From an uncultured Desulfatibacillum sp. (GTDB lineage: Bacteria; Desulfobacterota; Desulfobacteria; Desulfobacterales; SpSt-501), in NCBI GenBank assembly GCA_964573635.1, contig CAZNKG010000004.1, positions 1,352 through 65,351 of the forward strand: a DNA stretch of 64,000 nucleotides, in the 5' to 3' direction. The notes beneath the pieces are model-generated. The model was not told the origin of the DNA. It made no database searches and saw only the letters and a list, made by a program, of their open reading frames with translations. The translations under genes and the position numbers were made by a program. Each line of letters begins with the position of its first letter. Within the stretch, counting starts at the first letter, position 1. This document shows, piece by piece, positions 11,468-32,587 of this stretch.

Positions 11468-11487
11468 GCGACCCGGAGACGACCGCC

Positions 11488-12330: not shown

Positions 12331-12430
12331 ACCGCTTTCCGGCGCCGCCCGGCCTTTCCGCGCGCGGCATCGGCGGGCCGCCCGGCGCTCCCGAGCGGCG
12401 GTCGGCGCGGCACAAGCGCCGGCCCCGCGT

Positions 12431-13228: not shown

Positions 13229-13251
13229 GATCAGCCTTCGCCCTCGCCGGA

Positions 13252-13288
13252 CCCGCCCGGGGGCCGCCCGGCGGCGGCCCCGGGCGGG
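13252..13288 (-). other. GC-rich intercistronic stem-loop between phnD and phnE
   Basis: CCCGCCCGGGGGCCGCC / loop CGGC / GGCGGCCCCGGGCGGG gives 16 bp with one bulged G. No U-tract follows. Confidence 0.6.
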
Positions 13289-13300
13289 ACGGGGTCCGGG

Positions 13301-14311: not shown

Positions 14312-14398
14312 GACGTCTCCTTTCAGGTGGTGGATGAGTTCAGGGTACTCTCCGCAAGGCGTTGCGGGGCGTAAACCCGGTTTTCCAACGGCGCGGGC

Positions 14399-15244: not shown

Positions 15245-15301
15245 GCGGCGGGCTCCTTGGGTTGGGGGTTGCTTCATCGGCCGCGATGCTAGCGGCCCCG
15301 G

Positions 15302-15328
15302 ATTAGCGTTCGATTAGGCGTCGATGCG
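15302..15328 (-). promoter_or_regulatory. Candidate Pho box plus -10 element for phnCDE
   Basis: Plus strand: ATTAG 15302, ATTAG 15313, ATGCG 15324, in 11-bp phase. Reading toward phnC these are CTAAT repeats, followed after 8 nt by TAGCAT (plus-strand coordinates 15286-15291). Confidence 0.6.
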
Positions 15329-15444: not shown

Positions 15445-16644
15445 TTGCGGATCATCTTCTTCGCGGGAAAAGGCGGCGTCGGCAAGACCTCGGTCGCCGC
15501 CGCCACCGGCGTCGCGGCGGCCCTCTCGGGCCGGCGGACGCTCGTCCTGTCGCTCGATGTCGCCCACAGCCTGGCGGACATCTTCGACCTCGAGCGCGGG
15601 CTGCTCGACCGCAACCGGGGGCTGCCGGTGCGGGTGGCGCCCGACCTCTGGATCCAGGAGCTCGACATCCAGGAGGAGATCGGCCGCAACTGGAAGCAGA
15701 TCCACGCCTACCTCGCGGAGCTGCTGAACACCGCCGGGCTGGACGAGGTGCTGGCCGAGGAGCTCGCCGTGCTCCCCGGGATGGAGGAGATCAGCCTGCT
15801 GCTCCACATCAACCGCTACGCGCGGCGGAAAAAATTCGATGTCCTGCTGCTCGACTGCGCGCCGACCGGCGAGTCGCTGCGCTTCATCAGCATCCCGGCG
15901 ACGCTCGAGTGGTACCTGAAGAAGGTCTTCCGGCTGGAGCGCGCCCTGGTGAAGGTGGCCCGGCCGATCGCCCGGCGCCTGAGCGACCTCCCGCTGCCCG
16001 ACGACGGCTACTTCCGCGCGATCGAGGAGCTCGGCGCCCGGCTCAAGGGGGTCGACCGGCTCCTCGCCGACCCGGAGGTGACGACCGTCCGCCTGGTGGC
16101 GAACCCCGAAAAGGTGGTCTTGAAAGAGACCCAGCGCGCCTTCATGTACTTCTGCCTCTACCAGATGTGCATCGACGCGGTGATCATGAACCGCGTGCTG
16201 CCGCCGCAGGTGACCGACGCCTACTTCTCCGGCTGGCGCCGGGAGCAGGCGGCGAACCTCGAGTGGGCGCAGGCCTGCTTCCGGCCCGTGCCGGTCATGC
16301 CGGTGGACCTCTTCGGAGCGGAGATCGTCGGCTACGCCAGCCTGCGGGAGCTCGCCCGGCGCCTCTACGGACCGCGCGATCCGCTCGCGCGCTTCGTCGC
16401 CGAAGTGCCCTACCGGTTCGACAAGCAGGACGGCCGCTACGGCCTGCGGCTCAAGCTTCCGTTCGTCGTCCGGGAGGCGATCGACCTGAGCAAGATCGGC
16501 GACGAGCTGATCCTGCGCATCGGAAGCTACAAGCGGCACATCCTGCTGCCGAAGCAGGTGGCCGCGCGGCCGACGGTGAGCGCCCGGGTCGAGGCCCCCT
16601 ATCTCACCATCACCTTCAGCGGAGGGGAGCATGCCCAAGGCTAA
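15445..16644 (+). CDS. ArsA/Get3-family P-loop ATPase (single ATPase domain) with a C-terminal Hsp20/alpha-crystallin-like domain
   Basis: A TTG start with GGAG 7 nt upstream. Deviant Walker A GKGGVGKT and a DCAPTGESLRF switch motif. The C-terminal segment YGLRLKLPFVVREAIDLSKIGDELILRIGSYKRHILLP is a beta-sandwich-like Hsp20-type sequence. Confidence 0.8.
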   Translation: MRIIFFAGKGGVGKTSVAAATGVAAALSGRRTLVLSLDVAHSLADIFDLERGLLDRNRGLPVRVAPDLWIQELDIQEEIGRNWKQIHAYLAELLNTAGLDEVLAEELAVLPGMEEISLLLHINRYARRKKFDVLLLDCAPTGESLRFISIPATLEWYLKKVFRLERALVKVARPIARRLSDLPLPDDGYFRAIEELGARLKGVDRLLADPEVTTVRLVANPEKVVLKETQRAFMYFCLYQMCIDAVIMNRVLPPQVTDAYFSGWRREQAANLEWAQACFRPVPVMPVDLFGAEIVGYASLRELARRLYGPRDPLARFVAEVPYRFDKQDGRYGLRLKLPFVVREAIDLSKIGDELILRIGSYKRHILLPKQVAARPTVSARVEAPYLTITFSGGEHAQG

Positions 16645-16864
16645 ACGCGGCTGCGATCATCCGGCGGGCTGCCCGATCGGAAGCCTCTTCCAGAGCCTGG
16701 CGGCGCTTCTCGGCCCCGGCGCCGAGACCGGCGCCCATCTCAAGCGCTCGCAGCTCGAGCTGCTCAAGGCCCTGCGCGCCTGGGCGGACGGGCGGATCGG
16801 GGAGCTCGAGGGCCGGCGCCGCCCGGGGCGCGGCAAGCGCATCACCAAGATCGCCGTGGACTGA
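16631..16864 (+). CDS. Small basic hypothetical protein (77 aa), translationally coupled to the ArsA-like gene
   Basis: GGAGGGGA lies 3-4 nt upstream of the ATG. The gene overlaps the ArsA-like gene by 14 nt, and its composition is helical and non-repetitive. Confidence 0.5.
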   Translation: MPKAKRGCDHPAGCPIGSLFQSLAALLGPGAETGAHLKRSQLELLKALRAWADGRIGELEGRRRPGRGKRITKIAVD

Positions 16865-16877
16865 GGCCTCCGGGCGC

Positions 16878-16932
16878 CTCACCGAAAACGAACCCGATCC
16901 TCATCACGCGCTAACACTACCAGGAAGATAAT
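16878..16932 (+). promoter_or_regulatory. Candidate Pho box (four repeats) plus -10 element GATAAT for the 17063-22318 operon
   Basis: CTCAC 16878, CGAAC 16889, CTCAT 16900 and CTAAC 16911 are each 11 bp apart. GATAAT at 16927-16932 follows 9 nt after the extended last repeat (CTAACAC, ending 16917). The site lies at the edge of an AT-rich island (16921-16972). Confidence 0.55.
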
Positions 16933-17062
16933 GAAAATTTATGTAGGCAAAGAAATGACTTTTTTTCTCGACAGAACCCCGCGCGCCTGTTAGCTTTTCC
17001 CCGGTTTCCCCCACACTTGGACGGCAGCGTTCCAACCCCACATCAGCCATCGGAGGTGACCC

Positions 17063-17335
17063 ATGAACCTTTTTGGAAACGGACTGCGTTTCGGCGGCGC
17101 CGTGGCGATCGGCGCGGCCGCCGTGCTGCTCGCCCCCGTCGTTCTGCCGCTCGTCGCCAGCGTGCTCAAGCCGGTGGTGAAGGGCGTCATCAAGGGCGGG
17201 ATCCTGGCCGTCGAGGGGGCGAAGGCCGCGCTCGCGGAAACCAAGGAGACGATCGAGGACCTCGCGGCCGAAGCCAAGGCCGAAGTCACCGAGAGCCGCA
17301 AGGCCCCGGCCAAGGCGAAGAAGCAGGCCGCCTGA
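17063..17335 (+). CDS. Small membrane-associated protein, DUF5132-like (N-terminal hydrophobic segment, Lys/Ala/Glu-rich amphipathic tail)
   Basis: GGAGGTG lies 5 nt upstream of the ATG. Sequence: GAVAIGAAAVLLAPVVLPLVASVL followed by ETKETIEDLAAEAKAEVTESRKAPAKAKKQAA. The family name is recalled from memory. Confidence 0.7.
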   Translation: MNLFGNGLRFGGAVAIGAAAVLLAPVVLPLVASVLKPVVKGVIKGGILAVEGAKAALAETKETIEDLAAEAKAEVTESRKAPAKAKKQAA

Positions 17336-17373
17336 AGCGGACGCTTGACACCGGCGGAAAAGGGGCCCGTGAC

Positions 17374-17886
17374 GTGGAGCTGCCCGAAGCCGTCCTCTGC
17401 CACCAGAGCGCCCAGCGCCTGCGGTTCCGGGTGCCGGCCCAGCGGGGCGACACGGCCTATTTCGCCAGGGTGGTGAAGGGCCTCTCCGGCCTGCGCCGCT
17501 TCGCGCTGCTCACGGCCAACCCGACGACGGGCAGCGTGCTCTGCGCCGGGGACGACCTCGATCCATCCGCCATCGCGGCGCAGGCAAGCCGCCTGGGGCT
17601 GTTCCGCCTGCGCGAGGACTCCGAGCCCGCCCCCGCGCTGATGCACCGCATCGTCCGGCCGGTGGCCGGGATCGACCGATCGCTCGCCGTGATGACCGGC
17701 GGGAAGATCGATCTCGCCACCGCCGCATTCCTGGCCCTTCTCGCCTCCGGGGTCGTCCAGCTCCTGCGGGGGCGCCTGAGCGTCCCGCCCTGGTACACCG
17801 CCTTTTGGTACGCCTTCGGCCTCGCCACCATGGTGGTGGTCGACCGGGCGGCCCGCCGCGCCGGGGACGCCCCGGTTGCGGACTGA
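17374..17886 (+). CDS. Membrane protein with an N-terminal non-canonical HMA-like (HMA_2-type) domain and a C-terminal two-TM hairpin
   Basis: A GTG start with AAAAGGGG upstream. The sequence AQRLRFRVPAQRGDTAYFARVVKGLSGLRRFALLTANPTTGSVL parallels the N-termini of both P-type ATPases in this window. TM segments are AAFLALLASGVVQLL and YTAFWYAFGLATMVVV. Confidence 0.7.
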   Translation: MELPEAVLCHQSAQRLRFRVPAQRGDTAYFARVVKGLSGLRRFALLTANPTTGSVLCAGDDLDPSAIAAQASRLGLFRLREDSEPAPALMHRIVRPVAGIDRSLAVMTGGKIDLATAAFLALLASGVVQLLRGRLSVPPWYTAFWYAFGLATMVVVDRAARRAGDAPVAD

Positions 17887-17935
17887 GCCGCGGGCCCGCG
17901 CTCGCTTCAGCGGCGGCGCCTGCGCCCACGCGCAT

Positions 17936-17962
17936 CTAACCAAATCCTAATCGAAACCTAAC
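17936..17962 (+). promoter_or_regulatory. Three phased CTAAC-type repeats upstream of the P2-type ATPase (possible internal Pho box)
   Basis: CTAAC 17936, CTAAT 17947 and CTAAC 17958, 128 nt upstream of the GTG at 18090. No convincing -10 hexamer was seen downstream. Confidence 0.4.
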
Positions 17963-18089
17963 CTCCATCACCGACAAGTTGCGGGTTTGCTTCCGCCGCC
18001 GGCTGCGGCGCCGCCTTGCCCGCTGGCGTGGGCTTCCGGGCGGCCGCCGCGCGACACGGCTTGCGCGGCGCGGGAAAAAGGCGGGTATC

Positions 18090-21000
18090 GTGATTGAGCC
18101 CATCCATACGAAAATCGAAGGCCGGGCGCGGTTCCGGGTCGATGGACTGCTCGGCTCCGACCCCCTCAAGCGGTTTCTCGAAAACCGGCTCGCCCGGGAA
18201 AAGGACATCCTCTCCGCCCGGGCGAACACGCTCACCGGCAGCATCCTGATCAACTACAACTCCAACAACAACCACCACACGATCGCCTTCCTCCTGGAGG
18301 ACATCCTGATGGAGGCGGGCGGCGGCGCGGCGCCGCCGGCCGATCCGCCGGCGGCCGAAGCGGCCGCGGCGCCCCCGCGCCCCTCCAAGGCCCGCGAGCT
18401 TCCCGTCGACGTCCTCAAGCGCTTCCTCGCCCCGCCGCCGGCGGCCCGGGCCCCCGAGAAGAAGCCCTGGCACACGCTCGAGGCCGAGACGGTCGCGGCG
18501 ATCGTGCGCGCCGACCCGGCGGCGGGGCTTTCCGAGGCGCTCGCCGCCGAGCGTCTCCGGGAGCATGGCCCGAACATCCTGCCGAAGCCCGCGGCGCGCT
18601 CGGGGGCGGCGATCTTCTTCGAGCAGCTCAATTCGCTGCCGGTCTACCTCCTCGGCGCGGCCGCCGGCATCTCGGTCCTCACCGGGGGGCTGCTCGACGC
18701 GGCCGTGATCGGCGCCGTCGTGCTCGCCAACGCCGCGATCGGCTATTTCACGGAGAGCGGCGCCGAGAAGACCATGGAGTCCCTGAAGGATCTCGTGCAC
18801 CCCACGGCGGAGGTGCTGCGCGGCGGCCGCGAGATCCATTTGCCGGTCGAGGAGGTGGTCGTGGGCGACCTCGTCGTGCTCAAGCCCGGGACCTACGTCG
18901 CTGCCGACTGCCGGCTTTTGGCCGCCGACCGGCTGAGCGTCGACGAGTCGATGCTGACCGGCGAGAGCCTGCCGGTCCACAAGGAGACCGCGCCGCTCCG
19001 GCACGAGAACACCCCGCTCGCCGACCGCACCAACATGGTCTACATGGGGACCCTCGTCACCGGCGGGCAGGGGCTGGCGGTCGTGGTGGCCACCGGCCGC
19101 CACACCGAGGTGGGGACGCTGCAGGCCATGCTCGCGGAGACCGTGACCCCGCGGACCCCGATCGAGCTCCAGCTCGAGCGCATGGGCAACCAGCTCGTCG
19201 TCGCCTGCGGCGCCATCTGCGGCGTGGTCTTCGGGATCGGCTTCGTGCGCGGCTACGGCCTCATCCAGATGCTCCAGATGGCCATCTCGCTCGCCGCCTC
19301 GGCGGTGCCCGAGGGGCTTCCGGCCGCCGCCACGATCAACTTCGCCATGGGGATCACCGATCTGCGGCGCCACGGGGTGCTCGTCCGGCGGCTGCAGGCC
19401 GTCGAGACCCTCGGCGCGGTGCAGACGGTCTGCCTCGACAAGACCGGCACCATCACCGAAAACCGCATGTCGGTGACCGAGATCGTCGCCGGCGCCTGCC
19501 GCTACGCCGTATGCGACCGCCGCATCGCCCCGCCCGCGGACGGCCGCGACCCCCTCGCCGCCGGCGAGCTCCGCCAGCTGCTCACCGTCTGCGCGCTGTG
19601 CAACGAGATCAAGATCGCCGCGACCGGTCCGGCCGGCGCGCTCGAGTTCTTCGGCTCCTCCACCGAGAAGGCGCTCGCCGAGGTGGCGGCCGCGGCCGGC
19701 TTGGATATCCTCGGGCTGCAGGAGGAATTCCGCTTCATCGGCCACCGCCTGCGCGCGGAAAACCGCCTCTTCATGAGCAGCCTCCACGCCTGCCCCGCGC
19801 AGGAGTGCCACGCCATCTTCACCAAGGGCAGCCCGCACGAGGTGCTCGACCGCTGCGACCGGGAAATGGTGGACGGACGCGTGCGGCCGATCTCCGAAGA
19901 CCGCCGCCAGGAGATCCACATCGAAAACGACCGCATGGCCGGCCGCGGCCTGCGGGTGCTCGGCTTCGCGTTCAACCGCTTCGCCCTGAACGAAGAAATC
20001 GATGAGGCCGCCCCCATGGTCTGGCTGGGGCTCGTCGGGATGGTCGACCCGGTGCGGCCGGGGGTGAAGGAGCTGATCGCGGTCTTCCACCGCGCCGGGG
20101 TCGAGACGGTCATGATCACCGGCGACCAGAGCACGACGGCCTACGCCGTCGCCCGCGAGCTCAACCTCGGGGGCGACAAGCCGCTCAAGATCCTGGACTC
20201 CGCCGAGCTTGCCTCCCTCGACCCCGAGCGGCTGCAGGCGCTCGCCAAGAACGTGCACGTCTACTCGCGCGTGAGCCCCGCCCACAAGCTGCGCATCGTC
20301 CAGGCGCTCCAGGCCGCCGGCCGGATCGTGGCCATGACCGGCGACGGCATCAACGACGGCCCGGCGCTCAAGGCCGCGAACTTGGGCATCGCGCTCGGCG
20401 AGTCGGGGACCGACGTCGCGCGCGAGGTGGCCGACATCATCATCGCCGGCGACCGCCTGGAGGAGCTCGTTCAGGCGCTGCGCGGGGGGCGCACGACCTA
20501 CGGGAACATCCGCAAGTCGGTGCACTTCTTCCTGTCGACCAACATGACCGAGATCATGGTCATGTTCGTCTGCATGGCGCTCGGGCTGGGCTTCCCCTTG
20601 AACGTGATGCAGCTTCTGTGGATCAACATCATCTCGGACATCTTCCCCGGCCTCGCCCTTTCGCGGGAGCCGGCCGAGCCGCAGATCATGTCGCGGCCGC
20701 CGCGCCCGGCCGGGGACCCGCTCTTCTCCGGAAGCGACTTCCGCCGGATGGCGCTCGAGTCCGCCGTCATCTCGGCCGGGGCGCTCGCGGCCTACGCCGT
20801 CGGCATCCGGCGCTACGGCCAGGGCCCGCAGGCGAGCGCGCTCGCCTTCCAGACGCTCGTCTTCGGCCAGCTGCTGCACGCCTTCAGCTGCCGCAGCGAC
20901 CGGCACGGCCTGCTCGACCCCGGCCGCCCGCCGGCGAACCCCTATCTCACCGCGGCCGTGGGCGGCTCGCTCGCGCTGCAGGCGCTCACCCTTTTCGTCC

Positions 21001-21143
21001 CCGGCCTGCGGGGGTTTCTCGGACTCGCGCCGCCAGCGATCGCCGACCTCGCGGTCATCGCCGCCGGCGCGCTGCTGCCGTTCCTCGCCAACGAGTCCCG
21101 CAAACGGGTCCGCGCGACCCCCGACCATGAGGTGATCCCGTGA
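18090..21143 (+). CDS. P2-type (SERCA/PMCA-like) cation-transporting P-type ATPase with an N-terminal HMA-like domain
   Basis: Cation_ATPase_N-like WHTLEAETV...GLSEALAAERLREHGPNILP. TGES (LTGESLPV), PEGL in TM4 (19308-19319), DKTGTIT, TGDQ, GDGINDGPALK. TM5 has STNMTEI and TM6 has WINIISD (20619-20639). Confidence 0.9.
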   Translation: MIEPIHTKIEGRARFRVDGLLGSDPLKRFLENRLAREKDILSARANTLTGSILINYNSNNNHHTIAFLLEDILMEAGGGAAPPADPPAAEAAAAPPRPSKARELPVDVLKRFLAPPPAARAPEKKPWHTLEAETVAAIVRADPAAGLSEALAAERLREHGPNILPKPAARSGAAIFFEQLNSLPVYLLGAAAGISVLTGGLLDAAVIGAVVLANAAIGYFTESGAEKTMESLKDLVHPTAEVLRGGREIHLPVEEVVVGDLVVLKPGTYVAADCRLLAADRLSVDESMLTGESLPVHKETAPLRHENTPLADRTNMVYMGTLVTGGQGLAVVVATGRHTEVGTLQAMLAETVTPRTPIELQLERMGNQLVVACGAICGVVFGIGFVRGYGLIQMLQMAISLAASAVPEGLPAAATINFAMGITDLRRHGVLVRRLQAVETLGAVQTVCLDKTGTITENRMSVTEIVAGACRYAVCDRRIAPPADGRDPLAAGELRQLLTVCALCNEIKIAATGPAGALEFFGSSTEKALAEVAAAAGLDILGLQEEFRFIGHRLRAENRLFMSSLHACPAQECHAIFTKGSPHEVLDRCDREMVDGRVRPISEDRRQEIHIENDRMAGRGLRVLGFAFNRFALNEEIDEAAPMVWLGLVGMVDPVRPGVKELIAVFHRAGVETVMITGDQSTTAYAVARELNLGGDKPLKILDSAELASLDPERLQALAKNVHVYSRVSPAHKLRIVQALQAAGRIVAMTGDGINDGPALKAANLGIALGESGTDVAREVADIIIAGDRLEELVQALRGGRTTYGNIRKSVHFFLSTNMTEIMVMFVCMALGLGFPLNVMQLLWINIISDIFPGLALSREPAEPQIMSRPPRPAGDPLFSGSDFRRMALESAVISAGALAAYAVGIRRYGQGPQASALAFQTLVFGQLLHAFSCRSDRHGLLDPGRPPANPYLTAAVGGSLALQALTLFVPGLRGFLGLAPPAIADLAVIAAGALLPFLANESRKRVRATPDHEVIP

Positions 21144-22318
21144 TCTTCACATCCGAATCCGTTACGGAAGGCCATCCGGACAAGCTCTGCGACCAAATCA
21201 GCGACAGCATCGTCGACCACTTCCTCAAGCAGGACCCCTACTCCCGGGTGCGCGCCGAGTGCGCGGTCTCGAGCGCGATCATCTTCATCGCCGTGCGCTA
21301 CGCCTCCGAGGCCAAGGTCGACTTCTCCTACCTCGCCCGCAAGGTGATCCAGCGCATCGGCTACGACCAGCCGGACTTCAACGCCAAGATATGCAGCATC
21401 CTTTCGGCCCCGCAGGAGCTGCCGCTCAACATGGCGCACCGCTTCGACGAGGAGAAGCTCACCGACGCGGAGATCGACCGGGTCGCGGCCAAGAACCAGG
21501 TGACGCTCTTCGGGTTCGCCTGCGACCAAACCCCCGAGCTCATGCCGCTGCCCATCATGCTGGCGAACCGCCTCACCCGGCGCATGTCCGAAGTCCGCCA
21601 CCAGAAGATCCTGCCCTACCTGCTGCCGGACGGAAAGGTCCAGGTGGCGGTCACCTTCGACGGCGGCCGGCCGGTGCGCATCCACAGCCTGACCATCATG
21701 GCGAGCCTCGACCAGCCCCGGCAGGTCGACGCCGACAAGCTCGCCGCGGCCCTGGTCGACAGCGTCATCCAGCCGGTCTTCAAGCATGAAAAAATCAAGC
21801 CCGACAAGGAGACGCGCATCCTCGTCAACCCCGACGGCCCCTACGCGGGCGGCCCGACCCACCACTCCGGGCTGACCGGCCGCAAGAGCGCGGTCGACAC
21901 CTACGGCGAGTACGCCCGGCACAGCGGCGACGCGCTGAGCGGCAAGGACCCCATGCGGGTCGACCGCATCGGGGCCTATGCCGCGCGCTACGCCGCCAAA
22001 AACATCGTCGCCGCCGGGCTCGCCTCCCAGTGCGAGGTCATGCTGAGCTACTCCATCGGCATCACCCGTCCGGTGAGCCTCCAGGTCCAGACCTTCGGAA
22101 CCGGGAAGGCCGCCGACGAGAAGATCCGCAAACTCCTCGAGCGGCACTTCGAGTTCCGCATGGCGGGGATCATGAAGCACTTCCGCCTGCGCACCCTGCC
22201 GGCGCGCCACAGCGAGGGCTATTTCCAGCGCCTCGCCGCCTACGGCCATTTCGGCCGCAGCGACATGGACCTGCCCTGGGAGAAAACCGACAAGGCCGAG
22301 CTGCTCAAGGCCGGCTGA
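21140..22318 (+). CDS. Divergent S-adenosylmethionine-synthetase (MetK) paralogue
   Basis: The GTG start overlaps the ATPase stop (GTGA). It has FTSESVTEGHPDK, LTGRK and SGKDPMRVDRIGAYAARYAAKNIV. The canonical GAGDQG reads AAKNQV, GDxGLTGRK reads HHSGLTGRK, and HGGGAFSGKD reads HSGDALSGKD. Confidence 0.85.
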   Translation: MIFTSESVTEGHPDKLCDQISDSIVDHFLKQDPYSRVRAECAVSSAIIFIAVRYASEAKVDFSYLARKVIQRIGYDQPDFNAKICSILSAPQELPLNMAHRFDEEKLTDAEIDRVAAKNQVTLFGFACDQTPELMPLPIMLANRLTRRMSEVRHQKILPYLLPDGKVQVAVTFDGGRPVRIHSLTIMASLDQPRQVDADKLAAALVDSVIQPVFKHEKIKPDKETRILVNPDGPYAGGPTHHSGLTGRKSAVDTYGEYARHSGDALSGKDPMRVDRIGAYAARYAAKNIVAAGLASQCEVMLSYSIGITRPVSLQVQTFGTGKAADEKIRKLLERHFEFRMAGIMKHFRLRTLPARHSEGYFQRLAAYGHFGRSDMDLPWEKTDKAELLKAG

Positions 22319-22345
22319 CGGACCCGCCCGCCCGGCCGCCGCAAA

Positions 22346-22366
22346 GGCCCGCGCCGGGCGCGGGCC
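22346..22366 (+). other. Stem-loop after the MetK-like gene (9-bp GC stem, no U-tract)
   Basis: GGCCCGCGC-CGG-GCGCGGGCC. It is followed directly by the RBS GGAGAGGAG of the next gene. Confidence 0.5.
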
Positions 22367-22383
22367 TGGAGAGGAGATCCCGC

Positions 22384-22947
22384 ATGCACTGGCTCATGAT
22401 CGCCGCCGCCGTGGGGCTCGGGGCGCTCGCCGCATCGCGCGGCCGGCCCTGGATCGAGCGGCTCATCCAGGCGGCGGCCCCGGGGCCGGAAGCCGCCCTG
22501 CGCCGCGAAACCGAGCTCGACCGCCGGATCGCGGCCTGGCGCTCCGCCGAGCAGCCTCTCGAGCGCTTCCGGCGGCTCGGGGAGATCGTCGCGGCGGCCC
22601 ATGCCGAGCGCGCCGACCCGGCCGCCCGCAAGCTCCTCATGCGTTTTGCCGCCATGCAGGTCGAGGCCCTGCCGGCGGCGGCCGAGGAGCTCAAAACAGC
22701 CGGCGGCGGCCGGCTGCCGGAGATCCCCGCCTTCGGCCTGCTCGCCGAAGCGCTGGAGGAGCAGGGGCGCGCCGCGGAGGCGCTCGCGCTGTGCCGCCGG
22801 GCGGAGGCGCTGGGAGTGAGGGACGGGAGCCGGGCGGGATTCGCCGGCCGGATCAAGCGGCTTGAGGCCGGGCGTCCGGAGAAGGCCGCCGGGCGGCCGC
22901 GCGCCGGCAAATCCGGAAAGCCCCCCTCCCCGCGGCGGCGCCGATGA
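22384..22947 (+). CDS. Hypothetical protein with an N-terminal TM segment, a helical (TPR-like?) body and a basic tail
   Basis: GGAGAGGAG lies 7 nt upstream of the ATG. N-terminus MHWLMIAAAVGLGALAA. No family was recognised. Confidence 0.5.
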   Translation: MHWLMIAAAVGLGALAASRGRPWIERLIQAAAPGPEAALRRETELDRRIAAWRSAEQPLERFRRLGEIVAAAHAERADPAARKLLMRFAAMQVEALPAAAEELKTAGGGRLPEIPAFGLLAEALEEQGRAAEALALCRRAEALGVRDGSRAGFAGRIKRLEAGRPEKAAGRPRAGKSGKPPSPRRRR

Positions 22948-22948
22948 G

Positions 22949-23227
22949 CTATGCCGGAGTCTTTTTATGATACGTCCGGCATCGCGGGTAGTCCGCGCAG
23001 CGGAAGCGCAGCCAGGCGCCGCGGCGCTGATAGACGTGCATGGGCTTGCCGCAGGCGGGACAGGACGGGCGTTCTTCGGGGGCAAGCTGCCCCGGGCCCC
23101 TGAGCGTGAATTGGCGCCGGCAAACCTGGCACAGGAAGCGCTTCTTGCCGTTCGCCGTGCAGCCGTAGCGGTAGATGGCATCGGAGCGGCAGCGCGGGCA
23201 GTGGATCCCTTCGATCAATTTGCGCAT
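22949..23227 (-). CDS. Small double zinc-ribbon protein (an IS1/IS1595-type N-terminal finger plus a topoisomerase-type C4 finger); not a transposase
   Basis: CPRCRSDAIYRYGCTANGKKRFLCQVCRRQF and CPACGKPMHVYQRRGAWLRFRCADYPRC. The start is taken at MRKLIEG; the upstream ATG at 23257 is also possible. Confidence 0.6.
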   Translation of the reverse strand: MRKLIEGIHCPRCRSDAIYRYGCTANGKKRFLCQVCRRQFTLRGPGQLAPEERPSCPACGKPMHVYQRRGAWLRFRCADYPRCRTYHKKTPA

Positions 23228-23321
23228 CGCCCCTCTCGTCCGGCCGGGGCGGCGCACCGCGGCCGGTTCTCCGGCTGCGGCGGCCGCTCGCCTGTGTCGG
23301 GCGCGATGATGACCCCGGCGT

Positions 23322-23359
23322 GTGAGAATCGGACTAGGCGCGGGTTAGAAGGCGGTTCG
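23322..23359 (-). promoter_or_regulatory. Candidate Pho box upstream of the zinc-ribbon gene
   Basis: Plus strand: GTGAG 23322, ACTAG 23333, GTTAG 23344, GTTCG 23355, in 11-bp phase. They read CTnAC-type toward the minus-strand gene. Confidence 0.45.
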
Positions 23360-23360
23360 G

Positions 23361-23651
23361 TCAGATGCCGCGGAGCGGCCGCTTGGCCGGCCGCATCGCT
23401 TCGAAAAGCTCCGCATCGCGGGGATCCCGCACCCGCGGCCGGGCTTCATAGCGCATGAATTCGATGAACTGCTTGATCCGCTCGGCGTATTGCCTCCCGC
23501 AGCGCTCCCGCAGCGGATCGCCGGAGCACCGCCGCAGCAGCCGGCGCTCGGCCTCCGTCGCCTCGCGGTCGGCCAGATGAATCATTTCGTAATAGTCCTT
23601 GTCCCGAACGGCCCCCATGAAATCGGAGAACTTGCAATCCTTGGAGATCAT
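23361..23651 (-). CDS. Hypothetical 96-aa protein
   Basis: ATG at 23651 (MISKDCKFSDFMGAVRDKDYYEMIHLADRE...) with normal composition. An A6G9 tract forms the RBS region. No family was recognised. Confidence 0.5.
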   Translation of the reverse strand: MISKDCKFSDFMGAVRDKDYYEMIHLADREATEAERRLLRRCSGDPLRERCGRQYAERIKQFIEFMRYEARPRVRDPRDAELFEAMRPAKRPLRGI

Positions 23652-23747
23652 GCCCCCCCCCTTTTTTCGGTTGCCGCCCCCGTCGCCCGCCCGCCGGGGG
23701 CGGCAGCGGTCTTTCACGGTCGGCCAAGGAATGGATAAATGCGGATT

Positions 23748-23774
23748 GTTAGGCTTTTATTAGGATTCGGTTCA
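23748..23774 (-). promoter_or_regulatory. Candidate Pho box upstream of the 23361-23651 gene
   Basis: Plus strand: GTTAG 23748, ATTAG 23759, GTTCA 23770, in 11-bp phase, 97 nt upstream of the minus-strand ATG at 23651. Confidence 0.45.
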
Positions 23775-23922
23775 AACGGGCGCCTCGGTTTCACGGTTCG
23801 ACCCGGCCGGCGTGCCCACCGCGTTTTGCCAATCCGGGAAAGCTGGTTTATGGAGACGGCGGCGATCTGCACTCAAACGCGGCGGGCGGCGTTGCGCCGG
23901 CGCGCCGGGGAGGAGATGACCG

Positions 23923-26847
23923 GTGGCCGATGACCGCGGCGCGGCAGTCGAGCTGATCCACAGGCTTCCGGAAAGGGCGCGGTTCCGGGTGGCGGGACTG
24001 AAGGGCGACCTTCACCGGGCGCGCTTCCTCGAGCAGGCGCTCGGGGAGCGGGCGGGCATACGCCGGGCGGCGGCAAGCCCCGTGACCTCCACGGTCCTCA
24101 TCCGCTTCGCCCCCGGCCGGCCGGTGGAGGAGGTGGCGGCGGCCATCCGCGAAGCGATGGCGGCCGAACTCCCCGAGGGGCAGCCGGCCTTCACCGCGCC
24201 GGAGGGCGCCGCCCGCCGGCCGGGGAAGGGGTGGCCGCCGCCCTGGGCGATGCTTTCGGCCGCCGAGGTGCTGCGGCGCTTCGAGCTCTCCGCTGAAGCC
24301 GGCCTTTCGCCGGAGGCTGTCGCGGAGCGCCGCCGCCTGTACGGGTCGAACCGCCTGCCGGCAATGGCCCCGCGCGACCTGCCGGCCATCTGGAAGTCCC
24401 AGGTGACGAGCCTTCCGGTGGTCTTGACCGCCGCGGCCGCCCTGCTGTCGCTCCTTTCCGGGGCGCTCGCCGAAGGGGCGCTCGCGCTGGCGATCGTGGC
24501 GCTGAACGCCGCCATCGGCGCCTTTTCCGAAAACCGCTCCGAGCGCCTTCTCGACGCGGTGCGGGAATCGGTGGAGCTCAAGGCCCGGGTGGTGCGCGGC
24601 GGACGCCTCACGGAGATCGCCTTCGAGGAGGTGGTGCCGGGCGACCTCCTCGACCTGCAGCCGGGCGACCGGGTGGCGGCCGATGCCCGGCTGGTGCAGG
24701 CGGAGGGGCTGGGCGTCGACGAGGCCGCGCTCACCGGAGAGAGCCTCCCGGTGCAGAAATCCGCCGGCCGGCTTCCTCCGGACGAAGCGGCGGCGGCCGG
24801 CTTCGGCGCCAACATGCTTTTCCGCGGCACCCTGGTGGTGGAGGGCAGCGGCCGCGCCGTGGCCGTGGCCACCGGGGCGCAGACCGTCCTCGGCCGGCTG
24901 CAGAACTTCCTGGGCGCGGTTTTTCCGCCCGAGGCCCTGGTCGCCCGGGAGATGCGCCGCCTGTCGCGCCGCTTCGCCCTTCTCGGCCTGGGTGCGGCGG
25001 GGCTTTTCGCCGTGGCGGCTCTCTGGCGCGGCGCCGGGCTGCTCGGCGCGCTCCGGGGAGCGCTCGCCCTCATGGGCGGGGCGATCCCGTCGGGGCTCTC
25101 CACGCTGACGCTCGGCGCCTTCGCCCGCGGCCACCGCGAGCTGCGGCGAAACCGCGTCCTCGTCCGCCGGCTCCGGGCGCTGGGAAACCTCGCCTCGGCC
25201 CAAATCGTCTGCTTCGACAAGACCGGCACCCTCACCCGCAACCGCATGCGCGTCGCCGTGCTCGCCGCGGCCGGTCCGGCTTTCCGGCCGGCCTTCCGGG
25301 CCCAGCCGCCGGCCTTCATGCAGGACGCCGACGTCCGCTGGCTCGTCTCGCTCGCCACCCTCTGCAACGAGGCTTTCATGGTGCACGAAGGCGCCCAGTC
25401 CCTCGAGGGCTCCTCGACGGAGCAGGCCATCATCCGTCTTGCGGAGCGCGCGGGCATGAACTCGACCGCCTTTCGCAGCGACCACCCCATCCGCGACATC
25501 CGCCACCGCAGCGAGGGCGAGCCCTTCATGGTCACGATTCACCGCTGGACGGCCGACCGCGAGCTCGCGGTGATGAAGGGCAGCCCCCACGAGGTCCTGG
25601 AGCGCTGCGGCCGGGTCCACCGCGGCGGCCGCGCCCACCCGCTCGGGGAGGCCGAGCGCTCCCGCATCGAAGCCGAGAACTCCCGCATGTCCGGAGCGGG
25701 ACTGCGGGTCCTGGGGGTGGCCTACCGCTGGGACCCCAAGGGGGACGCGGAGTCCCTGTGCCCCCCGGGCCGCGGGCTCGTCTGGTCGGGTCTGATCGGG
25801 CTCTCCGATCCGGTGCGCCGGGAGGCGGAGGGGGTGATCCGGGGGCTGCAGCAGGCCGGCCTGCGCACGGCGGTCATCACCGGCGACCAGAGCCTGACCG
25901 CGCAGCACATCGGCCGCGAGCTGGGGCTTTCCGCCGGCGGGCCGCTGCGCATCTTGGACGCCGCGGACCTGAGGGCCCTGAGCCCCGAGGGGCTCAAGAG
26001 CGTCGTGCTGCGCACCCACGTCTTCGCGCGCCTCTCCCCCACGCAGAAGCTTCAGATCATCCAGGCCTATCAGCGCGCCGGGCTCGGGGTGGTGATGGTC
26101 GGGGACGGGTTCAACGATGTGCTCGCCCTGAAGGTCGCCGATGTGGGCATCGCCATGGGCCGCGACGGGGCCGAGCTCGCCCGGCGGACCGCCGATCTCG
26201 TGCTCGAGGACGACGACCTCGAAAACGTGCCGCGCGCCGTGGCGAACGGACGCGCCTTCTATGCCAACATGCGCCGCAGCCTGCGCTTCGTCCTCGGCGC
26301 GGCCCACATGGACGTCGCCGCGGATCTCGCGGCGCGCAGCGGCATCGGCGGAGCGGGGCCGAGCCCCTGGCAAAGCGTCTGGGGAAACCTGGCCTGCCTC
26401 GCCCTCGCGCTGGAGCCGGCCGCCGCCGACGGCCGCGAGCCCCCGCCGCCCGCAGACCTGATCACCCCCGCGGAGGCCCGCGCCGCAACCGCCGACGCGG
26501 TCAAGGCCCTGGCCGCCGCCGCGGTCGCGGGCGGGCTCGGGCGGGCGGGCGCCGGCCCCGGGAGCGATGCGGATCGGCTGCTGTGGCAGAGCGTCTCGCT
26601 CAACCAGCTGCTCCTCGCCTTCACCTGCCGGGGCCGCGACGGAGCCGCGCCGCCGCCCAACCGCAGGCTCCAGGCGGTGTTCTGGGCGCTCGCTGCAAGC
26701 CACCTCTTCGCGGCCCTGCTCGCCGGCGGGCCCGTCCGGGCGGCGGGCGACATCCTCGCGCTCGCCGCGGGCGCGGCGCTATTCCGCCGGCTCGCTCAGG
26801 CCGAGCCGTCGACCGCTTCGGCCGCCTCGCCCCCCCCGCGGGCGTGA
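23923..26847 (+). CDS. P-type ATPase paralogue with an N-terminal HMA-like domain and degenerate ion-site and C-terminal membrane regions
   Basis: A GTG start with GGGGAGGAG 7 nt upstream. It has ERARFRVAGLKGD...TSTVLIRF, GLSPEAVAERRRLYGSNRLP, LTGESLPV, DKTGTLT (25216-25230), TGDQ and GDGFNDVLALK. TM4 reads PSGL (25087-25098) instead of PEGL, and the TM6-equivalent reads WGNLACL (26380-26400). Confidence 0.85.
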   Translation: MADDRGAAVELIHRLPERARFRVAGLKGDLHRARFLEQALGERAGIRRAAASPVTSTVLIRFAPGRPVEEVAAAIREAMAAELPEGQPAFTAPEGAARRPGKGWPPPWAMLSAAEVLRRFELSAEAGLSPEAVAERRRLYGSNRLPAMAPRDLPAIWKSQVTSLPVVLTAAAALLSLLSGALAEGALALAIVALNAAIGAFSENRSERLLDAVRESVELKARVVRGGRLTEIAFEEVVPGDLLDLQPGDRVAADARLVQAEGLGVDEAALTGESLPVQKSAGRLPPDEAAAAGFGANMLFRGTLVVEGSGRAVAVATGAQTVLGRLQNFLGAVFPPEALVAREMRRLSRRFALLGLGAAGLFAVAALWRGAGLLGALRGALALMGGAIPSGLSTLTLGAFARGHRELRRNRVLVRRLRALGNLASAQIVCFDKTGTLTRNRMRVAVLAAAGPAFRPAFRAQPPAFMQDADVRWLVSLATLCNEAFMVHEGAQSLEGSSTEQAIIRLAERAGMNSTAFRSDHPIRDIRHRSEGEPFMVTIHRWTADRELAVMKGSPHEVLERCGRVHRGGRAHPLGEAERSRIEAENSRMSGAGLRVLGVAYRWDPKGDAESLCPPGRGLVWSGLIGLSDPVRREAEGVIRGLQQAGLRTAVITGDQSLTAQHIGRELGLSAGGPLRILDAADLRALSPEGLKSVVLRTHVFARLSPTQKLQIIQAYQRAGLGVVMVGDGFNDVLALKVADVGIAMGRDGAELARRTADLVLEDDDLENVPRAVANGRAFYANMRRSLRFVLGAAHMDVAADLAARSGIGGAGPSPWQSVWGNLACLALALEPAAADGREPPPPADLITPAEARAATADAVKALAAAAVAGGLGRAGAGPGSDADRLLWQSVSLNQLLLAFTCRGRDGAAPPPNRRLQAVFWALAASHLFAALLAGGPVRAAGDILALAAGAALFRRLAQAEPSTASAASPPPRA

Positions 26848-32586: not shown

Positions 32587-32587
32587 C

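Follow-up and report, generated by a model that had tools for sequence, protein, structure and literature searches.

What is the role of a gene cluster in which an ion pump of calcium type is encoded together with two small membrane proteins and a changed form of SAM synthetase, and which is preceded by phased direct repeats? The cluster lies in a 64,000-nt stretch of DNA (hereafter the window) from an uncultured Desulfobacterales-like bacterium. The underlying observation, i.e. the genes, their domains and the phased repeats, was confirmed, and the cluster is real, kept across several bacterial phyla and so far uncharacterised. Judged by its domains, it is centred on two proteins, a P2A-type ATPase with a fused CoBaHMA domain and a divergent member of the methionine-adenosyltransferase fold. 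On balance, the sequence evidence favours a locus that is part of the Pho (phosphate-starvation) regulon and encodes a PhoB-induced divalent-cation export module with accessory chemistry. The core features are:

16878..16921, plus strand: Pho-box array 1, four 11-bp units (CTCACcgaaaa CGAACccgatc CTCATcacgcg CTAACactacc)
16927..16932, plus strand: candidate −10 element GATAAT of a candidate PhoB-dependent promoter, 5 nt past the last 11-bp unit of array 1
16944..16996, plus strand: conserved block TAGGcAAAgAAATGActttttttCTCGACA-N17-TGT-TAGCTT, columns invariant across 9 Desulfobacterales loci
17063..17335, plus strand: DUF5132 protein, 90 aa (Pfam PF17195, E 1.2e-11)
17374..17886, plus strand: CoBaHMA (HMA_2) hairpin protein, 170 aa, GTG start (Pfam PF19991, 36.2 bits)
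17925..17968, plus strand: Pho-box array 2 (CCCACgcgcat CTAACcaaatc CTAATcgaaac CTAACctccat), within the 203 nt that separate the hairpin and pump genes
18090..21143, plus strand: P2A-type P-type ATPase, 1017 aa (Pfam E1-E2_ATPase, Cation_ATPase_N/C, Hydrolase, HMA_2)
21140..22318, plus strand: MetK-like protein (methionine-adenosyltransferase fold), 392 aa (NCBIfam TIGR01034, 378.9 bits)

The positions given in the first-pass annotation for the repeats (CTCAC 16878, CGAAC 16889, CTCAT 16900, CTAAC 16911) and for GATAAT (16927-16932) were exact, and its remark on AT-richness was borne out: with a GC content of 0.52, 16900-17099 is the lowest stretch at 14-25 kb (0.61-0.80 elsewhere). The pattern CTMAY-N6-CTMAY matches 11 times in the window against 0.36 expected, a number reached in 0 of 100 shuffles, and its sites lie 5′ of pstC, pstS, phoU/phnG, phnC and phoB-like genes. 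With an independent matrix trained only on the pst/phn/phoU/phoB promoters, array 1 scored 23.3 bits (best three units) and array 2, on which the matrix was not trained, 35.2 bits; over the 64 kb, array 2 ranked first of all arrays and array 1 sixth, both above every shuffle (maximum 18.3 bits). Judging from motif and placement, the repeats are the Pho box of the host genome. The suspected Pho link is far stronger than had been claimed, as the window is a Pho-regulon island, with Pho genes identified by Pfam and NCBIfam; its response regulator, at 239.7, does not reach the 296.2 that NCBIfam sets for the PhoB equivalog. Equivalents of array 1 precede DUF5132 in L008, L011, L012, L016, L022 and L024, and array 2 is kept 5′ of the pump in at least seven Desulfobacterales relatives (L007, L009, L010, L011, L012, L014, L015). 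No array of the CTAAC type was detected at the loci from Nitrospirota or cyanobacteria.

The earlier reading of the array 1 promoter also held: the order of last repeat, 4-5 nt and TAnnnT recurs at pstC, pstS and phnC in the window, where TACCTT, TAGGTT and TAGCAT, respectively, follow the last units at matching spacing. No canonical −35 element was found at this promoter, as expected for PhoB-dependent transcription. GATAAT makes a good −10 hexamer; the one after the pump array, ACAAGT, is poor. The conserved block 3′ of array 1 is probably a second, sigma-70-type promoter plus an upstream site, with a putative −35 TCGACA at 16968-16973 and an extended −10 at 16988-16996; it matched no Rfam family. 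Because of this conserved sigma-70-like promoter, the DUF5132 unit may not depend solely on PhoB.

The four genes lie where they had been placed, but the single tightly packed operon proposed for them does not stand. The 203-nt gap between the hairpin gene and the pump gene (17887-18089) holds the second, stronger repeat array, so that the cluster probably comprises two Pho-boxed transcription units, DUF5132 with the hairpin gene and the pump with the MetK-like gene. Within the latter, the MetK-like GTG and the pump TGA share GTGA, as noted before; the two genes overlap or are separated by at most 30 nt in 28 of 60 loci.

Far from lacking conserved synteny elsewhere, an outcome that the first-pass annotation had named as speaking against its reading, the gene set is very strongly conserved. 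Of the 83 loci fetched, about 60 keep the order DUF5132, CoBaHMA-hairpin, CoBaHMA-P2A ATPase and MetK-like; they belong to Desulfobacterota, Nitrospirota and NC10. Searches from the MetK-like and DUF5132 sides recovered this order as well; the remotest DUF5132 homologues retrieved lay again inside the same cluster. DUF5132 is found 5′ of the pump in about 60 loci and the MetK-like gene directly 3′ of it in 70, and 56 loci have the CoBaHMA-hairpin protein; Fischerella-group cyanobacteria, too, carry the pair of pump and MetK-like gene. Around outgroup Firmicutes pumps (37-39% identity) all partner genes are missing. Frequent neighbours are pst, phoU, phn, phoH and ornithine-lipid genes, and in other phyla pstSCAB-phoU, phn, phoH, phoA or OlsF-like genes adjoin the cluster. 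Wider versions also include an amphipathic repeat protein (in 45 loci), monodomain CoBaHMA genes (in 50) and a CDF-like transporter (in 20), and the version in L008 carries a Na_Ca_ex exchanger as well; none of the first three is present in the version of the window. The flanking genes are:

15445..16644, plus strand: ArsA/GET3-family ATPase with C-terminal HSP20-like domain, 399 aa, public gene call (Pfam ArsA_ATPase 1.6e-81, ArsA_HSP20 1.7e-17)
16631..16864, plus strand: AF_1253-like small protein, 77 aa, public gene call with PF27253 (weak)
22384..22947, plus strand: hypothetical protein, 187 aa, N-terminal hydrophobic segment, after the MetK-like gene
22949..23257, minus strand: double zinc-ribbon protein, 102 aa, annotated InsA-like (Pfam Zn_ribbon_InsA 1.4e-08)
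23361..23651, minus strand: conserved hypothetical protein, 96 aa, divergent from the second ATPase
23923..26847, plus strand: second CoBaHMA-fused P-type ATPase, 974 aa (Pfam, NCBIfam, motif inspection)

The ArsA-like gene (NCBIfam TIGR00345, 227 bits, cut-off 135) accompanies the cluster only in Desulfobacterales, in six related loci; the AF_1253-like gene overlaps it by 14 nt and has homologues adjoining ArsA in 5-6 loci. Homologues of the 187-aa protein follow MetK-like in the closest relatives only (L008, L009, L010, L013), and neither this protein nor the 96-aa one, with homologues in 7-9 loci, has a Pfam match. The zinc-ribbon protein is a conserved member of the wider cluster, with homologues in 38 loci, mostly paired with a monodomain CoBaHMA gene; the CTAAC-type array upstream of its gene (23327-23359) scores 16.3 bits, below the shuffle maximum of 18.3, and the minus-strand Pho-box array of the 96-aa gene (23742-23774) 28.6 bits. 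In the second ATPase the ion site is degenerate (IPSGL replaces PEGL; VGDGFND hinge); its orthologue in L006 gives a full HMA_2 match.

Turning to the core proteins, Pfam finds the domains called earlier, namely DUF5132, HMA_2 in both the hairpin protein and the pump, and Cation_ATPase_N/C. The DUF5132 protein consists of a single N-terminal hydrophobic helix and a Lys/Ala/Glu amphipathic tail. In the 170-aa protein the PF19991 match (cut-off 30 bits) covers profile positions 12-152 of 154, and a two-helix membrane hairpin forms the C-terminus. The N-terminal domain of the pump reaches 31.5 bits against the same cut-off, and the two domains align with an hhalign probability of 96.2% (E 2.4e-9), in agreement with the shared HMA-like domain that had been reported. 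Pfam HMA_2 is CoBaHMA, a domain familiar from calcyanin; being without CxxC and having a conserved His and a basic strand, it is not the chaperone-like HMA that had been suggested.

The ion-site motifs described for the pump are present (PEGL, STNMTEI, INIISD), and its ligands E309, N768, E771, N796, S/T799 and D800 are SERCA-type and nearly invariant among 114 relatives. The E908 position is Gln, as in 28 of the 114 relatives, those in which the TM8 motif could be matched. The NCBIfam models that fit best are of PMR1 and SERCA type (569.8 and 504.3, against cut-offs of 798.3 and 703.4), and among PDB structures SPCA1 (451 bits), LMCA1 (439 bits) and SERCA (367 bits) match best. As the pump falls short of every NCBIfam Ca2+-ATPase equivalog cut-off and carries Gln at E908, its Ca2+ specificity remains a candidate one. 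Heavy-metal P1B models stayed far short of their cut-off (248 against 346, NCBIfam), in keeping with a P2A and not a P1B-6 pump.

The last gene had been called a MetK paralogue. The fold is right (TIGR01034 cut-off 309.4), but the label understates the change, the methionine ligands being swapped throughout the clade. In human MAT2A numbering, the protein of the window carries E70R, Q113L, D258H and K289R and retains the catalytic residues. Of the 67 sequences in the residue table, all have His at D258 and Arg at K289, 65 have Arg at E70 and 54 have Asn at D134; Q113 has become Leu, Met, Phe or Val, and S247/R249 Asp/Pro. No change is seen at E23, H29, D31, K32, E57, D179, R264, K265, K285 or D291, and 62 sequences retain K181. 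The clade has kept the ATP-triphosphate and metal residues, with the methionine-holding triad (E70, Q113, D258) replaced. The triad binds methionine by its amino and carboxyl groups; a variant with D258G kept tripolyphosphatase activity and lost SAM formation (PMC6850014). With the triad lost from nearly every member, the usual formation of SAM is unlikely, and the MetK-like protein is probably not an ordinary SAM synthetase.

We propose that under low phosphate phosphorylated PhoB would bind the repeats, replacing the −35 element, and turn on both units, along with the uptake of phosphate and phosphonate and the synthesis of phosphorus-free lipids. The pump is predicted to move Ca2+ (possibly Mn2+ or Sr2+ too) out of the cytoplasm. 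Its basic CoBaHMA domain, the anchored hairpin protein and the single-pass DUF5132 protein might serve the pump as partners for regulation or targeting, comparable to regulins of the phospholamban type. Again by analogy, they would make its activity depend on an anionic ligand, for instance polyphosphate or acidic phospholipid, which both change in phosphate starvation. The MetK-like protein would be produced in a fixed ratio with the pump; instead of making SAM in the ordinary way, it may carry out an altered ATP-cleaving or adenosyl-transfer reaction, or be a subunit that cleaves triphosphate or has a regulatory role.

It is unlikely that the cluster instead builds or feeds an intracellular Ca store (an amorphous Ca-carbonate-like or other phosphorus-free Ca inclusion or compartment), with the pump loading the compartment and the small membrane and CoBaHMA proteins shaping or marking its membrane. 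Such a store would fit the Microcystis region in which two DUF5132 genes, one CoBaHMA-hairpin gene and one monodomain CoBaHMA gene flank the marker ccyA and a Ca2+/H+ exchanger and are co-expressed with ccyA, the CoBaHMA nature of the N-terminal domain of W-type calcyanin, and the additional genes of the wider clusters, including the exchanger of L008. A magnetotactic Nitrospirota genome bin (L033) likewise carries the pump with its MetK-like partner, as does the ccyA-bearing Fischerella muscicola PCC 7414, which was imaged for intracellular carbonate (PMC8890360). However, a crude check saw no calcyanin-like gene near the cyanobacterial loci or in the window, whose version has none of the three additional genes; the cluster is common in members of Desulfobacterota and Nitrospirota not known for such inclusions; bacterial P2A pumps normally export across the cell membrane; and we found no tie between phosphate starvation and carbonate inclusions. 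A calcium storage or intracellular carbonate role, which develops the storage idea of the first-pass annotation with a better analogue, is speculative.

Less likely again is transport of another cation (Mn2+, Mg2+, Na+ or K+/H+) for general ion homeostasis amid the membrane and polyphosphate changes of phosphate starvation. The missed equivalog cut-offs, comparable scores on several P2 and P3 models, the Gln at E908 and the CDF-like transporters alongside the cluster are consistent with it, as is the fact that the nearest solved relative, SPCA1, carries Mn2+ as well. The SERCA-type, nearly invariant ligands argue against it, together with the TM6 motif NxxSD, unlike the DxxxD of Na,K-ATPases, and top PDB matches that are Ca2+ pumps only.

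We consider it quite improbable that the locus serves phosphate-sparing membrane remodelling, with the MetK-like protein giving a SAM or adenosyl donor for phosphorus-free lipids, CoBaHMA sensing acidic lipids and the pump being secondary. An OlsF-like ornithine-lipid synthase, two glycosyltransferases and PhoH do lie beside the cluster in the window, with Pho boxes, OlsF-like genes adjoin it in L035, L040, L071 and L092 and GT1_3 in L007 and L014, and a CoBaHMA-anionic lipid interaction has been hypothesised (cited to Gaschignard 2024). But with the methionine ligands gone normal SAM synthesis is unlikely, the conserved core is without a SAM-using lipid enzyme, and the invariant partner of MetK-like is the pump and no lipid gene. 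That a housekeeping Ca2+ pump and an ordinary MetK adjoin by accident beside chance repeats, as the database labels of the two genes (‘Ca2+-transporting ATPase’, ‘S-adenosylmethionine synthetase’) and the MetK-like score above the TIGR01034 cut-off would allow, is scarcely tenable in view of the motif statistics, the synteny across phyla, the clade-wide swap of substrate-binding residues and the partnerless Firmicutes pumps.

The putative PhoB-induced export module was compared with known systems. The pump resembles SERCA, SPCA1/PMR1 and Listeria LMCA1 in DKTGT, TGES, TGDGIND, Cation_ATPase_N/C and the ten-helix layout, and matches the SERCA ligands E309 (PEGL), N768/E771 (STNMTEI) and N796/S799/D800 (INIISD), but its N-terminus is extended by a CoBaHMA domain of some 100 residues and E908 is replaced by Gln. 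Unlike those pumps, it always has a MetK-like gene after it and usually DUF5132 and CoBaHMA-hairpin genes ahead of it. The SERCA regulins phospholamban and sarcolipin are short single-pass proteins. They offer a working analogy for DUF5132, which is likewise short and single-pass, has a cytosolic amphipathic helix and is encoded with a P2A pump; the proteins share no sequence relationship, and the pump partnership is putative. The MetK-like protein has the three domains of MetK/MAT (TIGR01034) and about 300-330 bits to solved bacterial MetK structures, and differs in the replacement of E70, Q113, D258, K289, D134 (mostly) and S247/R249.

The ferrosome fez locus is reportedly a single stress-induced locus with a small hydrophobic protein and a P-type ATPase. 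This pairing is found here too, but the analogy drawn earlier fails, as the pump is P2A rather than P1B-6, no Fez-like partners were seen and the regulatory context is phosphate, not iron. The domains, promoter and Pho link of the first-pass annotation thus survive, whereas the ferrosome, the chaperone-like HMA, the single operon and the plain MetK paralogue do not. A closer analogue than fez is the ccyA neighbourhood of Microcystis aeruginosa PCC 7806 (Benzerara 2022, PMC8890360; Bruley 2025, bioRxiv 10.1101/2024.07.07.602159), with which the locus has in common CoBaHMA with a C-terminal helical hairpin, one-helix DUF5132 and an adjoining Ca2+ transporter; with the CoBaHMA family it shares a conserved His ahead of a basic first strand (RxRxR/K) and the lack of CxxC. 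Unlike the ccyA region, it has no calcyanin, a P-type pump instead of a CAX exchanger and a Desulfobacterales-like anaerobe as host, and the available parts of the CoBaHMA/calcyanin papers (PMC8890360; bioRxiv 10.1101/2024.07.07.602159) make no mention of a MetK-like partner or Pho regulation.

As in the Pho boxes of E. coli PhoB, Synechocystis SphR and Desulfovibrio vulgaris DVU1083, at least two direct repeats phased at 11 bp replace the −35 element, with TAnnnT downstream. The repeat geometry agrees with that of published Pho boxes, in which 8+3 bp units lie some 10 bp ahead of the −10; the box is CTTAACCT in cyanobacteria (PMC1906773) and (c/t)GTnAC in D. vulgaris (PMC3333781), and the local CTAAC core resembles both. 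In the host genome the motif is found at pst, phoU, phn and phoB; what sets this genome apart is that its targets also include CoBaHMA proteins, a pump of Ca type and a MetK-like protein, which are absent from the Pho target lists described for E. coli, Synechocystis and D. vulgaris in the available parts of PMC1906773 and PMC3333781.

The core of the cluster consists of four genes:

17063–17335, plus strand: DUF5132 protein, 90 aa (Pfam E 1.2e-11)
17374–17886, plus strand: HMA_2 protein, 170 aa, with two C-terminal hydrophobic helices (36.2 bits, cut-off 30)
18090–21143, plus strand: P2-type ATPase (the pump), 1017 aa, with N-terminal HMA_2 (31.5 bits, cut-off 30)
21140–22318, plus strand: MetK-like protein, 392 aa (TIGR01034, 378.9 bits, cut-off 309.4)

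The four same-strand genes claimed in the first-pass annotation are borne out by Pfam and NCBIfam matches and agree with the public gene calls of an identical 540-kb metagenome contig. The GTG start of the MetK-like gene does overlap the pump stop codon, GTGA being shared with the pump TGA. The genes had also been described as tightly packed; they are real plus-strand genes, but a 203-nt gap parts the gene of the 170-aa protein (the hairpin gene) from the pump gene. This gap holds a second repeat array (CCCAC 17925, CTAAC 17936, CTAAT 17947, CTAAC 17958), and the core locus is read as two putatively Pho-boxed units. The entire window is a Pho-regulon island; most of the genes listed below for 4021–15313 and 26799–44135 carry upstream CTAAC-type 11-bp arrays. 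Around the core lie:

within 4021–15313: phoU, phnG-M and phnEDC
15445–16864: ArsA/GET3-family ATPase with HSP20-like C-terminal domain, and an overlapping 77-aa AF_1253-like gene
23361–23651, minus strand: conserved 96-aa gene paired with the second ATPase; strong Pho-box array at 23742–23774
23923–26847: second ATPase, a CoBaHMA-fused P-type ATPase
26799–28775, minus strand: OlsF-like ornithine-lipid synthase
within 26799–44135: two glycosyltransferases, GT4 and GT1_3
30485–31993: PIN-PhoH protein (phoH)
33651–36113, minus strand: PPDK_N/PEP-utiliser enzyme
36615–40503: pstC, pstA and pstS
41531–44135, minus strand: phoR-like/phoB-like pair, the PhoB-like regulator at 43341–44135

The repeats reported before the DUF5132 gene (CTCAC 16878, CGAAC 16889, CTCAT 16900, CTAAC 16911) and the GATAAT element (16927–16932) proved exact in position, and their AT-rich setting was confirmed as well: GC is 0.52 at 16900–17099, the lowest between 14 and 25 kb, compared with 0.61–0.80 elsewhere. 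The 64-kb window has 11 matches to the pattern CTMAY-N6-CTMAY where 0.36 would be expected, and 0 of 100 shuffles reach 11. Beyond the core-cluster sites the pattern is found upstream of pstC, pstS, phoU (divergent from phnG), phnC and the PhoB-like regulator gene, the Pho genes of the window having been identified with Pfam and NCBIfam. The regulator gene adjoins a kinase gene whose product scores above the PnpS cut-off and near the PhoR cut-off. Of two further matches, one precedes the 96-aa gene that neighbours the second ATPase and the other is at 3882, next to a Kre9/TIG-domain gene. The latter is a CTAAC-N6-CTAAC pair (3882–3897) at the start of this 744-aa Kre9/KNH and TIG-domain gene (1661–3892, minus strand); it is in plus orientation, without a plus-strand gene after it. 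For the left end of the window, an exact-protein look-up had no match. In 11-nt register the sites resolve into arrays of two to four units, followed 4–5 nt later by a TAnnnT hexamer at pstC, pstS, phnC and the DUF5132 gene; behind the pump array stands a weak hexamer, ACAAGT.

A weight matrix was built from the promoters of pst, phn, phoU and phoB alone, with 22 units in the training set. With this matrix the pump array, which was not in the training set, is the top three-unit array of the window on both strands (35.2 bits); the other untrained arrays score 28.6 bits at the 96-aa gene and 23.3 bits at the DUF5132 gene, and the maximum in 20 shuffles was 18.3 bits. More untrained matches were observed between the genes of the OlsF-like ornithine-lipid synthase and a glycosyltransferase, and at the gene of the PEP-utilising enzyme. 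The hallmark of a Pho-regulon member is present: direct repeats stand in tandem where a −35 element would be, phased at 11 bp and with the motif that the pst, phoU, phoB and phn promoters of this genome have in common. They are the predicted Pho box of this organism. The architecture of the window arrays agrees with that of published Pho boxes, in which direct repeats of 8 bp, joined by linkers of 3 bp, lie some 10 bp before the −10 element; the consensus is CTTAACCT in cyanobacteria (PMC1906773) and (c/t)GTnAC in Desulfovibrio vulgaris (PMC3333781).

CTAAC-type arrays also precede the pump gene in other fetched homologous loci (L007, L009, L010, L011, L012, L014 and L015) and the DUF5132 gene in L008, L011, L012 and L016, with inverted orientation in L022 and L024. 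This conservation is a phylogenetic footprint within the Desulfobacterales. The CTAAC matrix found zero arrays in the Nitrospirota or cyanobacterial loci, where it is solely the adjacency of pst and phoU that would point to Pho control. Between array 1 (16878–16921) and the DUF5132 start, a second block (16944–16996) is conserved in nine Desulfobacterales loci, with the consensus TAGGyAAA..AATGA..TTTTT-CTCGACA-N17-TGT-TAGyTT. Its elements (TCGACA, 17 nt, TGT-TAGCTT) are spaced as in sigma-70 promoters, with an invariant TAGG...AATGA upstream, so that two promoters may serve the DUF5132 unit. An Rfam search of 16800–18150 matched the conserved block to no family, the sole match being a sub-threshold guanidine-II inside the hairpin gene. 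A scan of 16600–24000 with the sigma-70 promoter consensus returned zero promoters, and a terminator scan of the same region gave terminator-like matches on the minus strand only, at chance level.

The cluster is conserved well beyond this genome. The nearest relatives of the pump come from Desulfobacterales and Desulfatibacillum genome bins (75–82% identity), followed by Nitrospirota and Thermodesulfovibrionia, including one magnetotactic bin, and then by Syntrophobacteraceae, NC10 and cyanobacteria (45–55%). Profile searches over 83 fetched loci found the order DUF5132, hairpin, pump, MetK-like in about 60 of them and in several phyla, which upholds the grouping proposed in the first-pass annotation; the MetK-like gene lies directly 3′ of the pump gene in 70 of the 83. 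The two genes overlap at the pump stop in 17/60 loci and are separated by at most 30 nt in 11/60 more. Reverse searches seeded with the MetK-like protein, or with the most distant retrievable DUF5132 proteins, return the same cluster. All four Firmicutes outgroup pumps (37–39% identity) are without the cluster partners, and Fischerella-group cyanobacteria keep only the pump and MetK-like pair. In the cultured carriers of this group (L052, which is Fischerella muscicola PCC 7414, L079, L081, L059, L064 and L076) a DUF5132 or hairpin gene is not nearby.

Wider versions of the cluster include a monodomain CoBaHMA gene (50 loci) and a double zinc-ribbon protein (38 loci, the window with 22949–23257 among them). 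Directly before the pump, 45 loci encode a repeat protein of about 230–250 aa, rich in V, G, A and T and with K and E in its repeats (for example L023, 7311–7994), which is found in Nitrospirota, Syntrophia and NC10 and has zero Pfam matches; at its place the window has the 203-nt Pho-box spacer. Its composition makes it look amphipathic and membrane-binding. A CDF-like transporter gene, identified by eye from sequence, follows the MetK-like gene in 20 loci (for example L047, 11904–12833), and the same cluster apparently recruits differing cation transporters. In L008 an exchanger of the Na_Ca_ex family (12506–13537) follows the MetK-like gene. Phosphate genes are recurrent neighbours in other phyla: pstSCAB-phoU adjoins the cluster in seven Nitrospirota loci, pstSCAB with a response-regulator/kinase pair in NC10, phn genes in L037 and L049, phoH in L007 and L090 and alkaline phosphatase in L091. 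OlsF-like genes adjoin it in L035, L040, L071 and L092. The ArsA-like/AF_1253-like pair accompanies the cluster in Desulfobacterales only (6 loci), placed either before the DUF5132 gene or after the second ATPase; that the tail-anchored-looking hairpin protein could be a client of the ArsA/GET3-like ATPase is only an idea.

The P2-type assignment of the pump stands, with the core motifs TGES at 290, DKTGTIT at 450 and TGDGIND at 750 and with Cation_ATPase_N/C domains by Pfam; the closest solved structures are SPCA1, LMCA1 and SERCA. The SERCA-like ion-site residues noticed earlier (PEGL, NxxE, NxxSD) were found too, AVPEGLP, STNMTEI and LWINIISD matching E309, N768/E771 and N796/T799(S)/D800. 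Among the seven Ca2+ ligands at SERCA sites I/II (E309, N768, E771, N796, T799, D800, E908), six are kept, with T799 as Ser, and E908 is Gln. These motifs are nearly invariant across 114 relatives. The pump stays below the NCBIfam PMR1-type and SERCA-type cut-offs (569.8 versus 798.3 and 504.3 versus 703.4), as it does for all Ca2+-ATPase equivalogs. Taken together, the Ca-type motifs and the sub-cut-off scores point to a P2A subfamily of its own, which has a Ca-type site and a putative specificity for Ca2+. The analogy to ferrosome (fez) ion-storage loci drawn in the first-pass annotation fails on pump subtype: the pump is P2-type and not P1B-6 like FezB, and P1B models reach at most 248 against a cut-off of 346.

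The pump N-terminus and the 170-aa protein both pass the gathering score of Pfam HMA_2 (PF19991), which is the CoBaHMA domain. When profiles of the pump N-terminus and of the 170-aa family were compared, hhalign gave a probability of 96.2% (E 2.4e-9), which confirms that both carry the same domain, as had been noticed by eye. The first CoBaHMA domain to be described was the one at the N-terminus of W-type calcyanin, the marker of intracellular amorphous Ca-carbonate in cyanobacteria; the CoBaHMA signature is a conserved His before strand 1 with conserved basic residues and without metal-binding cysteines (PMC8890360). The pump shows this signature as IHTKIEGRARFRV and the 170-aa protein as CHQSAQRLRFRV; CxxC is absent from both, and a regular expression finds the signature in 83/114 relatives. 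The earlier description of the domain as chaperone-like is not supported, and a metallochaperone is rejected because CxxC is absent and the family is CoBaHMA. The second ATPase reaches only 18.9 bits for HMA_2 against the cut-off of 30. It keeps DKTGTLT and TGES, has IPSGL for PEGL and VGDGFND for TGDGIND, and its TM5 and TM6 are without acidic or amide ligands; it could be either a pump or a regulatory relic. Fusions of CoBaHMA to transport proteins are reportedly noted in the CoBaHMA paper of Gaschignard et al. 2024, so the fusion of pump and domain as such is probably known.

Membership of the MetK-like protein in the MetK family was confirmed by the TIGR01034 score and by its Pfam N, M and C domains. 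In an alignment of 67 members of the clade with human MAT2A and two bacterial MetK proteins, the triphosphate/metal residues E23, H29, D31, K32, E57, D179, R264, K265, K285 and D291 are kept in 67/67 and K181 in 62/67. Other positions are replaced.

Replacements in the MetK-like clade (MAT2A numbering)
E70: Arg in 65/67 members; Arg in the window
Q113: Leu, Met, Phe or Val across the clade; Leu in the window
D258: His in 67/67 members, the window included
K289, which also counts as a triphosphate/metal residue: Arg in 67/67 members

In MAT2A, the methionine amino group is bound by E70 and D258 and a carboxyl oxygen by Q113, and the patient variant D258G loses SAM formation while tripolyphosphatase activity is kept (PMC6850014). 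The clade thus differs from MetK in that the methionine-binding residues E70, Q113 and D258 are replaced whereas the triphosphate/metal residues, K289 apart, are retained; with its methionine ligands replaced, it is unlikely to be an ordinary SAM synthetase. Among 120 protein clusters (P0121–P0240), all named MetK-like members are called ‘S-adenosylmethionine synthetase’ or ‘methionine adenosyltransferase’ (JGI, NCBI), in full agreement. D258 is His and K289 is Arg in almost all of these clusters. The naming looks like a systematic annotation error.

A conserved, Pho-controlled CoBaHMA-pump cluster is in our judgement likely, and we grade specific roles much lower. As an overall reading we favour, by a modest degree of confidence, a PhoB-induced divalent-cation export module with CoBaHMA, DUF5132 and MetK-like partners. 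When phosphate is scarce, PhoB~P would activate both units and the pump would export a divalent cation, Ca2+ or one like it. Regulation or targeting of the pump would fall to its basic CoBaHMA domain, to the hairpin protein and to DUF5132, which might sense the state of acidic lipids or polyphosphate. The MetK-like protein, made in a fixed ratio with the pump, would carry out a non-canonical ATP-dependent reaction. Export might be needed because Ca2+ is freed as polyphosphate and acidic lipids are consumed, or might supply periplasmic phosphatases with Ca2+; the pump might also load a store.

A service to a calcium-storage or carbonate-type organelle is unlikely. The CoBaHMA and DUF5132 toolkit shared with the neighbourhood of the calcyanin gene ccyA, the amphipathic and CDF-like genes added in other phyla, and the pump/MetK-like pair in Fischerella muscicola PCC 7414, which bears ccyA and has been imaged for carbonate inside its cells (PMC8890360), speak for such a role, but neither calcyanin nor inclusions are evidenced in this locus. 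No ccyA-like ORF with a triple glycine-zipper C-terminal domain was seen within 8 kb of the cyanobacterial loci, and in the window a crude small-residue-zipper scan, made without a calcyanin profile and uninformative at 71% GC, gave spurious out-of-frame ORFs only. Equally improbable is a fuller version, in which the cluster would be the conserved core of intracellular Ca handling induced by phosphate starvation, with evolutionary ties to the calcyanin toolkit for intracellular carbonate: with the help of DUF5132 and CoBaHMA proteins the pump would fill a membrane-bounded store, and the MAT-fold enzyme, with Arg and His for Glu and Asp, would act on a non-methionine substrate in a novel reaction, either adenosyl transfer or ATP-to-inorganic-phosphate cleavage. 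That the pump carries a different ion we consider quite unlikely, and a role in lipid remodelling or SAM supply is very doubtful, the loss of the methionine ligands standing against it. Chance arrangement or housekeeping genes are hardly credible in the face of synteny, motif statistics, matrix scores and MetK-like residue replacements.

Under the favoured export reading, the phosphate-starvation response of anaerobic sediment bacteria would extend to a P-type pump of the Ca type, to CoBaHMA proteins and to a MAT-fold enzyme, and a Pho-controlled Ca-type pump would link calcium and phosphate homeostasis within one regulon. A Pho-regulon member and a P2A pump are known kinds; the conserved partner set is unexplained. 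The large ‘SAM synthetase’ clade without methionine-binding residues, always encoded directly after one pump family, has probably been mis-annotated systematically, and novel chemistry or a novel sort of pump partner may lie in it. CoBaHMA and DUF5132 proteins, so far discussed only around cyanobacterial intracellular carbonate, gain a phosphate context and a fixed P2A-pump partner, both testable, and Fischerella muscicola PCC 7414 is a cultured carrier of the pump/MetK-like pair usable for experiments.

In literature on DUF5132, CoBaHMA, PF19991 and the Pho regulon with Ca-ATPase and SAM synthetase, a scope outside which Gaschignard et al. 2024 falls, the cluster, its MetK-like member and its Pho control are not described. 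In Microcystis PCC 7806, ccyA has as neighbours two DUF5132 genes, a CoBaHMA protein ending in a C-terminal helical hairpin, a monodomain CoBaHMA and a Ca2+/H+ exchanger, partly co-expressed with ccyA (bioRxiv 10.1101/2024.07.07.602159). Phosphate is absent from that account. In its parts, this neighbourhood is the closest published parallel.
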